Of a stretch of DNA of 64,000 nucleotides, positions 3,001-6,000 are shown piece by piece. The stretch is taken from the NCBI RefSeq assembly GCF_055900595.2, contig NZ_CM148325.1; one strand, 5' to 3'. Numbering within the stretch: position 1 is the stretch's first letter; each line of letters begins with the position of its first letter. Made by a program: the position numbers.

Positions 3001-6000
3001 AGTTCAACGATAACCAGTATGAATCTTTCAGGCTGGGATAAAGCGCGCACAGTTTCCATGCGCGTTTGGCTTTAAGCGGCATAGAGGCTTGCACCGTGAA
3101 ATGCTGCGCATCATGCCAGCGCAACAAGTTATCAGCCGAAAATCCAGGCAACATGAAAAGGGAAAGAAGTAACAATAGCAGTACGCGCATGATAGCCTCA
3201 TCAATAATAAGGCTTTATGCTAGATGCATTCCGCTTTGCGACTCAACCTTTTTCACCTTAAGTACACTGACCGTGAATTTAACCCTGACCCGAAGACTCT
3301 GGATGGGCTTTGCCCTGATGGCGCTGTTAACCCTGACCAGTACCCTGGTGGGATGGTACAACCTGCGCTTTATCAGCCAGGTGGAAAAAGACAATACTCA
3401 GGCATTGATTCCTACCATGAATATGGCGCGCCAGTTGAGCGAAGCCAGCGCCTGGGAACTTTTCGCCGCCCAGAACCTGACCAGTGCCGATAACGAAAAG
3501 ATGTGGCAGGCGCAGGGGCGAATGCTCACCGCACAAAGCCTGAAGATTAACGCGTTGCTGCAAGCGTTACGGGAACAAGGTTTTGATACCACCGCTATTG
3601 AACAACAGGAGCAGGAGATCTCCCGTTCGTTACGTCAACAAGGGGAACTGGTGGGGCAGCGTTTGCAACTGCGCCAGCAACAACAGCAACTCAGCCAGCA
3701 GATAGTCGCTGCTGCCGATGAGATCGCACGCCTGGCGCAAGGTCAGGCGAATAATGCGGCGACCTCTGCCGGAGCGACCCAGGCCGGGATTTACGATTTG
3801 ATCGAACAACATCAGCGTCAGGCCGCAGAAAACGCACTTGATCGGCTGATTGATATCGATCTTGAGTACGTTAACCAGATGAATGAACTGCGCCTTAGCG
3901 CCCTGCGCGTGCAGCAAATGGTGATGAATCTGGGGCTGGAACAGATCCAGAAAAATGCGCCAACGCTGGAACAGCAGCTCAATAATGCGGTGAAAATTCT
4001 GCAACGTCGGCAAATACGCATTGAAGATCCGGGAGTTCGTGCTCAGGTCGCAACAACGTTAACTTCCGTTAGCCAATATAGCGATTTGCTGGCGCTGTAT
4101 CAGCAGGACAGTGAAATCAGCAATCACCTGCAAACTCTCGCCCAAAATAACATCGCCCAGTTCGCGCAGTTTAGTAGCGAAGTCAGTCAACTGGTCGACA
4201 CCATTGAGCTGCGTAATCAGCATGGCCTGGCGCATCTGGAAAAAGCCAGTGCACGCGGGCAATACAGCCTGTTATTGCTGGGGATAGTTTCTCTTTGCGC
4301 ACTGATTCTGATCCTCTGGCGCGTGGTTTATCGCTCAGTCACGCGTCCCCTTGCCGAACAAACGCAGGCGCTGCAACGACTGCTGGACGGTGATATCAAC
4401 TCCCCTTTCCCGGAAACCGCTGGCGTGCGGGAGCTGGACACCATCGGGCGGCTGATGGATGCGTTTCGCAGCAGTGTTCATGCACTGAATCGCCACCGCG
4501 AACAGCTGGCGGCGCAGGTCAAAGCGCGTACAGCTGAATTGCAGGAGCTGGTGATAGAACACCGACAGGCACGGGCGGAAGCAGAAAAAGCCAGCCAGGC
4601 AAAATCGGCGTTTCTGGCGGCGATGAGCCATGAGATCCGCACACCGCTGTACGGTATTCTCGGCACCGCGCAACTGCTGGCGGATAATCCCGCACTTAAT
4701 GCCCAGCGTGATGATTTGCGGGCAATTACTGACTCTGGTGAATCGTTGCTGACCATCCTTAACGACATTCTCGATTATTCGGCTATCGAAGCGGGTGGCA
4801 AGAATGTTTCGGTCAGCGATGAGCCCTTTGAACCGCGCCCGCTGCTGGAAAGTACCCTGCAATTAATGAGCGGACGGGTGAAAGGTCGTCCGATTCGCCT
4901 GGTAACTGAAATTGCCGACGATGTACCGACTGCGTTAATGGGCGATCCGCGGCGTATTCGTCAGGTTATAACCAACCTGTTGAGCAACGCCCTGCGTTTC
5001 ACCGACGAAGGGCACATTATCCTGCGTAGTCGCACTGATGGCGAACAATGGCTGGTCGAAGTGGAAGACAGCGGCTGCGGTATTGATCCCTCGAAACTGG
5101 CTGAAATCTTCCAGCCATTTGTTCAGGTTAGCGGCAAACGCGGCGGCACCGGGCTGGGGCTGACTATCAGTAGCCGTCTGGCCCAGGCGATGGGCGGCGA
5201 ACTCAGCGCCACCAGCACGCCGGAGGTTGGAAGCTGTTTTTGTTTACGCTTGCCGTTACGTATTGCCACGGCACCCGTGCCAAAAACAGTCAATCAGGCG
5301 GTGCATCTGGACGGTTTACGTTTGCTGTTAATTGAAGATAACCCGCTAACCCAGCGAATTACCGTTGAGATGCTGAACAACAGTGGTGCGCAGGTCGTTG
5401 CTGTTGGCAATGCCGCGCACGCGATAGAGACGTTGCAAAATAGCGAACCGTTTGCTGCCGCACTGGTGGATTTTGATCTGCCGGATATCGACGGTATTAC
5501 CCTTGCCCGACAACTGGTACAGCAATATCCGTCGCTGGTTTTGATTGGCTTTAGCGCCCATGTCATCGACGAAACGTTGCGCCAGCGTACCAGTTCGCTA
5601 TTTCACGGGATTATCCCTAAACCGGTGCCGCGTGAAGTACTCGGTCAGTTACTGGCGCACTATCTTCAACTGCAAGTCAATAACGATCAACCGCTGGATG
5701 TATCGCAACTCAATGAAGATGCTCAGTTGATGGGGACGGAGAAGATCCAGGAATGGCTGACATTATTTAAACAACATGCCCTGCCGCTTCTCGATGACAT
5801 CGACATTGCCCGCGCCAGTCAGGAAAGCGAGAAAATAAAGCGTGCCGCACATCAGCTAAAAAGCAGTTGCTCGAGTCTGGGAATGCGTAGCGCCAGCCAG
5901 CTATGCGCACAACTGGAGCAGCAGCCATTATCTGCCCCCCTTCCACACGAAGAAATTACACGCAGTGTTGCCGCTCTGGAAGCATGGTTGAATAAGAAAG

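Follow-up and report, generated by a model that had tools for sequence, protein, structure and literature searches.

This analysis concerns the start codons of genes in a 64,000-nucleotide stretch of DNA (contig NZ_CM148325.1 of NCBI RefSeq assembly GCF_055900595.2), referred to here as the window, and in particular that of torS, which is transcribed divergently from torT across an 82-bp control region. The torT-torS locus contains the following features:

2162-3190, minus strand: torT coding sequence, starting at ATG 3190, with a Shine-Dalgarno duplex of -5.6 kcal/mol.
3042-3272, plus strand: open frame upstream of torS, 77 codons, in which the first start-like codon is TTG 3066; judged non-coding.
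3192-3216, no strand assigned: predicted IscR type-2 box ATAGCCTCATCAATAATAAGGCTTT, a motif match and putative operator common to the divergent torT and torS promoters.
3248-3262, no strand assigned: attB core CTTTTTCACCTTAAG of HK022-like and Stx1a-converting prophages, placed from the annotation of a 15-bp repeat.
3269-3270, plus strand: probable torS transcription start TSS2 (G or A), placed from the wording of Carey et al. 2019 (PMC6814406).
3273-6017, plus strand: torS coding sequence with GTG start, 914 aa, as given by RefSeq, PGAP, and the K-12 annotation.
3303-3305, plus strand: ATG (Met11), alternative torS start giving 904 aa, the sole candidate with reporter activity in K-12.
3318-3320, plus strand: ATG (Met16), giving 899 aa, with a Shine-Dalgarno-like run (GGAUGGG) upstream; used by some automatic callers and rejected here.

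After a TAA stop at 3039-3041, the reading frame of torS stays open between 3042 and 6017; it appears in an ORF listing as 3066-6017 (983 aa). The first-pass annotation of this DNA had described the frame as open back to an ATG at 3066, 69 codons upstream of GTG 3273. The open frame and the figure of 69 codons in the torS frame are both correct, but the codon at 3066 is TTG, and a neighboring ATG, at 3058, lies out of frame. The start-like codons in frame are TTG 3066, GTG 3096, ATG 3153, ATG 3189, GTG 3273, ATG 3303, and ATG 3318. An overlap with the divergent torT start at 3190 (minus strand) is also seen as described: the extension is antisense to the first codons of torT over its first 125 nt before crossing the 82-bp control region, and ATG 3189 shares a CATG palindrome with the torT ATG. 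In length, the upstream open frame of torS does not exceed chance. In a count across 60 genes of the window, the open frame before the start runs to 75 codons for both yccX and fabA, versus 77 for torS.

Could such a frame nonetheless encode a longer TorS, of 942 to 983 aa, initiated in strains with the window's allele at ATG 3189, ATG 3153, GTG 3096, or TTG 3066? The frame is open in E. albertii and the C. freundii complex as well as in the window, and some automatic callers give Citrobacter proteins of 940 to 956 aa that start within it. The window's allele is a TTA codon 5 codons before the GTG, and the 32-mer containing it occurs in 1592 of 5426 complete E. coli genomes (29%). K-12 has a TAA stop in its place, so that only 4 upstream codons are open as opposed to 77 in the window, and the corresponding TAA 32-mer occurs in 3185 of the 5426 genomes (59%). 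In approximately 200 of 5416 genomes (~4%), the region is split by prophages, with the break at 3244-3262; at the prophage junctions, the frame stays open for just 11 codons, none of them a start codon. TorS signaling persists in lysogens (PMC6814406), which speaks against a longer protein in that the extension is lost through insertion while TorS function is not abolished.

The pattern of substitution also argues against translation of the extension. Codon changes in the extension relative to C. braakii and C. portucalensis number 2 synonymous and 12 nonsynonymous, compared to synonymous:nonsynonymous ratios of 37:16 and 42:17, respectively, for torS codons 11 to 110. By codon position, differences in the Citrobacter comparison are distributed 6/5/9 in the extension and 13/8/45 in torS proper. 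In Citrobacter MGH106, a 1-nt indel breaks the frame, as do stops in Providencia and Salmonella. No residue upstream of the GTG (residues 1 to 69 of the extended ORF) is matched by NF008543 or TIGR02956, whose alignments begin 1 and 4 residues after the GTG, respectively. In addition, ATG 3189 lacks a Shine-Dalgarno sequence (duplex, +0.1 kcal/mol), the frame runs through the predicted IscR operator and the promoters, and open extensions of similar length occur at yccX and fabA. Judged from these genome comparisons, 3066-3272 is a stretch left open by chance in this strain and not part of TorS. The longer TorS is effectively refuted, and we give it almost no credence. The rejection of the extension in the first-pass annotation is thus well supported by the TAA alleles, the prophage splits, the codon changes, and the missing profile match; conservation of the extension, which had been proposed as a check, was not found, as the frame is not kept and synonymous changes are not in excess.

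The control region crossed by this frame closely resembles that of K-12. The torS region of K-12 is 96% identical to the window at the nucleotide level, with torT likewise divergent and a spacer of 82 bp in common. The IscR type-2 motif, as quoted in PMC4169559 (AxxxCCxxAxxxxxxxTAxGGxxxT), has one match in the 64 kb of the window, at 3192-3216, where 0.33 would be expected by chance. Binding and repression by IscR have been reported for the torT-torS region of K-12 (PMC6814406 and PMC10845959); the box in the window has the K-12 sequence and is conserved in Citrobacter. An IscR operator is therefore predicted in the window from the motif and from identity to the K-12 region. The HK022 attB site sits between torS and torT (PMC6814406), and in the Stx1a prophage records LC744179 and LC744181 a 15-bp repeat_region annotated as a duplication due to insertion, present at both prophage ends, aligns to 3248-3262. 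The site is unoccupied in this window. The TTA/TAA polymorphism (3258-3260) falls inside the attB core, which reads TTAAG here versus TAAAG in K-12; otherwise, nothing material differs between the two control regions. Separately, strain E200086 was found to carry a prophage adjoining yccA.

Carey et al. 2019 (PMC6814406) located one transcription start of torS (TSS2) no more than 3 bp from the GTG, and the passages of that paper concerned with TSS1 place it beyond attB. The window is identical to the K-12 sequence mapped in that work from 3269 to beyond 3340, and the positions of both codons (GTG 3273 and ATG 3303) and of the probable TSS2 therefore transfer directly. TSS2 lies downstream of every candidate start of the extension. 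A consensus scan of 3000-3400 found no sigma-70 promoter or terminator, and no Rfam RNA family was found in 2900-3500.

With the extension set aside, the choice of start rests among GTG 3273 and two ATG codons downstream. The torS gene of K-12 (b0993, NP_415513.2; NF008543 and TIGR02956 equivalogs) has its GTG at the same position and encodes 914 aa, as in the window. TorS from the window scores 1889.6 bits against NF008543 (cutoff, 982), with profile positions 2 to 913 of 914 aligned to residues 71 to 982 of the extended ORF. The sequence directly 5' of the GTG is not conserved between genera, and three of the 15 nt before it differ between the window and K-12. Escherichia, Citrobacter, and Providencia share the GTG itself and the decapeptide NL(T/S)LT(R/K)RLW, with changes that are almost all synonymous. 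In lineages bearing Met11, the decapeptide shows 7 synonymous changes and 1 nonsynonymous change (binomial P of 6.6e-4 versus an expectation of 27% synonymous), a statistic comprising only 8 substitutions, counted by hand. This conservation shows translation of the decapeptide over evolutionary time but does not demonstrate it in present-day E. coli. The homologue set behind these comparisons was gathered from a first search, which returned mainly truncated proteins, and a full-length search, which returned mostly Citrobacter sequences; TorS from Vibrio and Shewanella was left out. A 38-mer around the GTG and the ATG is identical in 5393 genomes; this invariance is a weak argument, as no change between two lineages of 96% identity would be expected about 1 time in 5.

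More distant orthologues extend the comparison. In Salmonella, Serratia-like, and Plesiomonas TorS, the torR-torT-torS layout and the residues SLTRRLW before the first membrane helix are as in E. coli. These proteins differ in starting with an ATG one codon upstream, followed by xxPSLTRRLW, and in having Leu at the Met11 position, which leaves them a single possible start. The C. freundii complex keeps the GTG and has ATA (Ile) at the position of Met11. An RR or KR pair before the first membrane helix is invariant in all full-length orthologues examined, and TorS includes this basic pair only when translated from GTG 3273 or from a codon further upstream.

The published assignment differs. Carey et al. 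assign torS to the ATG at 3303 (904 aa), a start first inferred by Jourlin et al. 1996, as cited by those authors (PMC6814406), while the databases and the first-pass annotation assign the GTG. In lacZ translational fusions in K-12, the ATG 3303 fusion was active and a direct GTG fusion was inactive (Carey et al. 2019, eLife, PMC6814406). One reading of these data is that, physiologically, E. coli initiates TorS at ATG 3303 alone and that the GTG, with the nine codons that follow, is now 5' leader, conserved as a relic or through constraint in other lineages. In addition to β-galactosidase activity from the ATG fusion only, the location of TSS2 within 3 bp of the GTG fits this reading. So do folds of longer transcripts, which predict AUG 3303 to be accessible (probability unpaired, 0.67) and the GUG to be paired (0.00). 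As an initiation codon, ATG is also inherently stronger than GTG. Shine-Dalgarno sequences are missing at both starts, the duplex energies being -0.9 kcal/mol at GTG 3273 and -1.0 kcal/mol at ATG 3303.

Several observations argue against ATG 3303 as the sole start. The active ATG fusion retains the in-frame GTG and 9 codons, and point mutants are unreported (PMC6814406); initiation at the GTG is therefore not excluded by the fusion result. The 7:1 ratio in the decapeptide comes from lineages that all carry Met11. A 904-aa protein would lack any positive charge ahead of the first membrane helix, where RR or KR is invariant in orthologues. Met11 is itself absent from several lineages, being CTG in Salmonella and ATA in the C. 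freundii complex, which has the same GTG, and absent from others too. We consider exclusive use of ATG 3303 possible, though rather unlikely.

The remaining ATG, at 3318, would give a protein of 899 aa and is the choice of callers that follow the only Shine-Dalgarno-like sequence present, GGAUGGG, 10 nt upstream (duplex, -6.0 kcal/mol). Every orthologue seen has Met16, and many database entries begin with MALLTL or MAALTL. A start here would truncate the first membrane helix, the AUG is predicted to be paired (probability unpaired, 0.08 to 0.20), and the ATG 3303 fusion was active even though it lacks Met16. We rejected ATG 3318, as the 15 codons upstream of it evolve as coding sequence, and regard it as a highly improbable start.

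On balance, TorS most likely starts at GTG 3273 (914 aa), although we infer its use in vivo with moderate confidence. The layout of the region, the allele frequencies, and the pattern of conservation were established here, and the reporter result and transcription starts come from the published work. The first-pass annotation's preference for this codon agrees with RefSeq NP_415513.2, PGAP, the NCBIfam profiles, and the conservation of the first ten codons, but it overlooked ATG 3303. The choice of GTG is defensible and not settled, since only the ATG 3303 lacZ fusion is active in K-12 and the GTG fusion is dead. If translation begins at GTG 3273, two Arg residues would flank the first membrane helix on its cytoplasmic side, and the resulting N terminus would be the conserved ancestral one, which other genera initiate with an ATG one codon upstream. 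Initiation at this GTG, which lacks a Shine-Dalgarno sequence, is probably weak. ATG 3303, which reporter work has shown to be able to initiate, would have been gained in the Escherichia lineage and may supply some or much of TorS, especially from the promoter whose transcript starts 3 to 4 nt before the GTG.

An extension of this idea, which we put forward as speculative and somewhat less probable than exclusive use of ATG 3303, is that TorS has two N-terminal isoforms between which promoter choice decides. Transcripts from the more distal TSS1 or from a prophage promoter, in which a leader precedes the GTG, could permit the 914-aa form with its conserved RR membrane anchor, and those from TSS2 would yield the 904-aa form only. 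If so, Met11, specific to Escherichia, would have evolved to rescue translation from TSS2, and the published ATG and the database GTG would both be right.

The window also contains other genes with non-ATG starts:

50945-52054, plus strand: ycbX, GTG start with Shine-Dalgarno GAGGA (-5.9 kcal/mol) and no further start ahead of codon 14.
9342-9986, plus strand: gfcB, GTG start, Shine-Dalgarno duplex of -5.2 kcal/mol, next ATG at codon 22.
40392-42152, plus strand: ycbZ, TTG start, no Shine-Dalgarno sequence (duplex, +0.4 kcal/mol).
8276-8488, plus strand: cspH, TTG start, Shine-Dalgarno TAAGGA (-6.1 kcal/mol).
7211-7384, minus strand: gnsA, GTG start at 7384, Shine-Dalgarno AAGAGG (-6.5 kcal/mol), next ATG at codon 43.
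7579-7767, minus strand: ymcF, ATT start at 7767, YmcF-like profile positions 1 to 62 aligned to residues 1 to 62.

Across the 60 genes of the window, 53 start with ATG, 4 with GTG, 2 with TTG, and 1 with ATT, proportions close to those usual for E. coli. The starts of torS and of all six genes above project exactly onto curated K-12 RefSeq starts. For five of the six, the coordinates and codons had been listed correctly in the first-pass annotation, in agreement with K-12 RefSeq and PGAP; the list was incomplete in that the ATT of ymcF had been missed. Its concern that these starts were its least certain coordinates proved greater than warranted, except for ycbZ, given the missing Shine-Dalgarno sequence.

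MOSC_N profile positions 1 to 118 align to ycbX residues 1 to 116, the GnsAB profile (1 to 54) aligns to gnsA residues 1 to 54, and for cspH both the CspH profile (1 to 70) and the CspA profile (1 to 67) align to the same-numbered residues. The signal peptide of gfcB, with its lipobox LAGC (residues 13 to 16), exists only if the GTG is used, because the next ATG comes only at codon 22. The N terminus of ycbZ (MTITKLAWRDL) is aligned from residue 1 in homologues down to 32% identity; a stop lies 5 codons upstream of its TTG, and no ATG occurs within 45 codons. For ymcF, an in-frame TTG 8 codons upstream is also a possible start. None of the six genes is mentioned in the TRAINSPOTTER N-terminomics supplements, the text of the Onc112 preprint does not mention ymcF, cspG, gnsA, or cspH, and a literature search on ymcF found nothing relevant.

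The original observation on the torS start is, in sum, partly confirmed; it is ordinary and mostly a matter of annotation hygiene. The extension should stay unannotated; automatic callers sometimes output a TorS of 940 to 983 aa from it. RefSeq and UniProt (GTG, 914 aa) are at odds with the one experiment that addresses the start directly (ATG, 904 aa), and the comparative evidence sides with the databases. The position of the start affects the design of torS fusions and N-terminal tags. The copy number of TorS is believed to determine how much torCAD expression varies from cell to cell, and the site and efficiency of torS initiation would therefore matter to those who model the torCAD circuit.

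The open torS frame begins at 3042, after a TAA stop at 3039, and contains seven candidate starts (plus strand):

3066: TTG, 983 aa
3096: GTG, 973 aa
3153: ATG, 954 aa
3189: ATG, 942 aa, in a CATG palindrome common with the torT start
3273: GTG, 914 aa
3303: ATG, 904 aa
3318: ATG, 899 aa

Frame reading bears out the 69 codons counted in the first-pass annotation between 3066, the first start-like codon, and GTG 3273; the codon at 3066, which had been given as ATG, reads TTG. The 77-codon open run in front of torS is not exceptional, since among 60 window genes both yccX and fabA have 75 open upstream codons. 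Coordinates of the gene pair are the same in the curated K-12 record and in the closest genome as annotated by PGAP:

2162-3190, minus strand: torT
3273-6017, plus strand: torS, GTG start, 914 aa

The extension in front of GTG 3273, which consists of the antisense of the torT 5' end (3066-3190) and the 82-bp torT-torS spacer, is almost certainly spurious. It had already been rejected in the first pass, with conservation proposed as a check; that check, now run, indicates noncoding sequence. The fifth codon ahead of the GTG is TTA in the window but a TAA stop in K-12; of 5,426 complete E. coli genomes, 3,185 carry a 32-mer diagnostic of TAA, 1,592 its TTA counterpart, and ~650 neither. In ~200 of 5,416 genomes, torT and torS lie apart (breakpoints at 3244-3262), and at prophage junctions (E. 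coli E69 and E. whittamii among them) the open stretch ahead of the GTG shrinks to 11 codons, none of them a start codon; TorS signalling persists in lysogens (PMC6814406). The frame is also broken in Citrobacter MGH106, Providencia, and Salmonella. It is open in the C. freundii complex; comparison with the window over the 84 nt that precede the GTG gives 2 synonymous against 12 nonsynonymous codon changes, spread evenly across codon positions, whereas torS codons 11 to 110 give a ratio of 37:16 with a third-position excess. Residues upstream of the GTG match neither NCBIfam TorS profile, position 2 of which aligns one residue (NF008543) or four residues (TIGR02956) past the GTG. Stops, prophage splits, substitution pattern, and the absent profile match all argue strongly against the extension as part of TorS.

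The spacer is instead occupied by the following elements:

3192-3216: exact match to the IscR type-2 motif, the sole one in the window (0.33 expected by chance)
3248-3262: 15-bp phage insertion duplication, CTTTTTCACCTTAAG, annotated at both ends of Stx1a-converting prophage records

IscR is reported to repress both torT and torS via a common site between them (PMC6814406, PMC10845959), and the HK022 attB has been placed between the two genes (PMC6814406). The TTA/TAA polymorphism (3258-3260) sits within the phage attB core. Rfam found no RNA families in the torT-torS region. As in E. coli (window 3191-3272), the spacer of the C. freundii complex is 82 bp (loci L022 and L023, 1419-1500), and the two have a conserved IscR box and a conserved GACTCAACCTTTTT block in common; the likeness of their extension "peptides" reflects this DNA-level conservation. 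Some automatic callers translate the spacer, giving TorS entries of 940 to 956 aa. Over the 15 nt before the GTG, window and K-12 differ at three positions, and other Escherichia share either state.

Conservation ends abruptly just upstream of the GTG, which is followed by N-L-(T/S)-L-T-(R/K)-R-L-W in Escherichia, Citrobacter, and Providencia alike. Codons of this decapeptide differ (CGA/AGA/CGC/CGG; CTC/CTG/TTG/TTA/CTA/CTT) while the residues do not; a small hand count over lineages bearing Met11 (ATG 3303) gave eight changes, 7 of them synonymous and 1 conservative (binomial P = 6.6e-4, with 27% of possible single-base changes synonymous). Salmonella, two Serratia-like/enterobacterial contigs, and Plesiomonas have an ATG start followed by xxPSLTRRLW, and the residue corresponding to Met11 is Leu; in the C. 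freundii complex, the start is likewise GTG, and an Ile codon (ATA) stands in place of Met11. In these relatives, translation must include the decapeptide. The invariant basic pair ahead of the first membrane helix fits the positive-inside rule. A 38-mer spanning both codons (3269-3306) is present in 5,403 of 5,426 E. coli genomes and identical in 5,393. One K-12-like record, E. coli BHUCD01 (NZ_CM183442.1), has TTG at Met11, possibly a sequencing error. A second torS type (locus L024, 1-4245, an E. albertii-type contig, SRR29184021), named E. albertii in databases and 75% identical to the window torS, lies directly after torR without an intervening torT and starts at ATG with MIFTLAKRLWMAF.

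By in vitro mapping, Carey et al. (2019) located two transcription starts for torS, TSS2 lying ≤3 bp from the GTG; of lacZ translational fusions to the GTG and ATG codons, only the latter was active, and the start was therefore redrawn to ATG (PMC6814406), as inferred earlier by Jourlin et al. (1996), cited therein. ATG 3303 as sole start is a serious rival, though a less probable one. The (ATG) fusion, however, kept the in-frame GTG and nine native codons, in place of which the (GTG) fusion had lacZ sequence (PMC6814406). The fusions, reported without point mutants, therefore show sequence sufficient for translation, not the codon used. Predicted folds of transcripts from upstream of attB agree in direction with the fusion result, leaving AUG 3303 accessible and GUG 3273 paired; a small predicted hairpin (3258-3282), in which CAC 3265-3267 pairs with GUG 3273-3275 between flanking A/U pairs, would sequester the annotated start in longer transcripts.

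Duplex energies revealed no Shine-Dalgarno sequence at GTG 3273 or ATG 3303. Met16 (ATG 3318) is invariant, has the only Shine-Dalgarno-like sequence, and is picked by some callers; a start there is disfavored because the 15 codons upstream evolve like coding sequence. The 914-aa assignment of the first pass keeps the support of databases and conservation, although it had not considered ATG 3303, the only active fusion. Comparative evidence points to GTG 3273 as the conserved torS start, and we consider it probable that this codon still works in E. coli. On this view, ATG 3303 is a second start specific to the lineage; it may contribute, perhaps chiefly on transcripts from TSS2.

Five other non-ATG starts listed in the first pass all coincide with curated K-12 starts; a sixth, that of ymcF, had been missed:

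50945: ycbX, GTG; Shine-Dalgarno duplex -5.9 kcal/mol; MOSC_N profile aligned from residue 1
9342: gfcB, GTG; duplex -5.2 kcal/mol; lipoprotein signal peptide with LAGC requires GTG
8276: cspH, TTG; duplex -6.1 kcal/mol; CspH and CspA profiles aligned from residue 1
7384, minus strand: gnsA, GTG; duplex -6.5 kcal/mol; GnsAB profile aligned from residue 1
40392: ycbZ, TTG; duplex +0.4 kcal/mol, i.e., without Shine-Dalgarno
7579-7767, minus strand: ymcF, ATT start (7767) in the curated K-12 record and in the window

The ycbZ frame is shut 5 codons upstream of the TTG and has no ATG in the next 45 codons; homologues align from residue 1, down to 32% identity. The ymcF ATT lies 11 nt past the cspG stop, and the TTG 8 codons before it, in the same frame, is a candidate alternative start. 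The window as a whole, an E. coli chromosome segment from torC to pncB, is reversed relative to K-12 (~96 to 97% identity in this region). It lacks the K-12 IS1D between cspH and gfcA (8488-8930); ssuE follows pyrD after 236 bp (53777-54014), where K-12 has ycbF, and the K-12 material upstream of pyrD, which we take to be the elf/ycb fimbrial operon, is absent. The ompA allele (38626-39678) shows a length polymorphism (1,053 bp versus 1,041 bp in K-12; 95% identity).

The torS start is an ordinary annotation matter, already covered by published work. What merits reporting is a discrepancy between databases and experiment over the TorS N-terminus, in which conservation sides with the databases.
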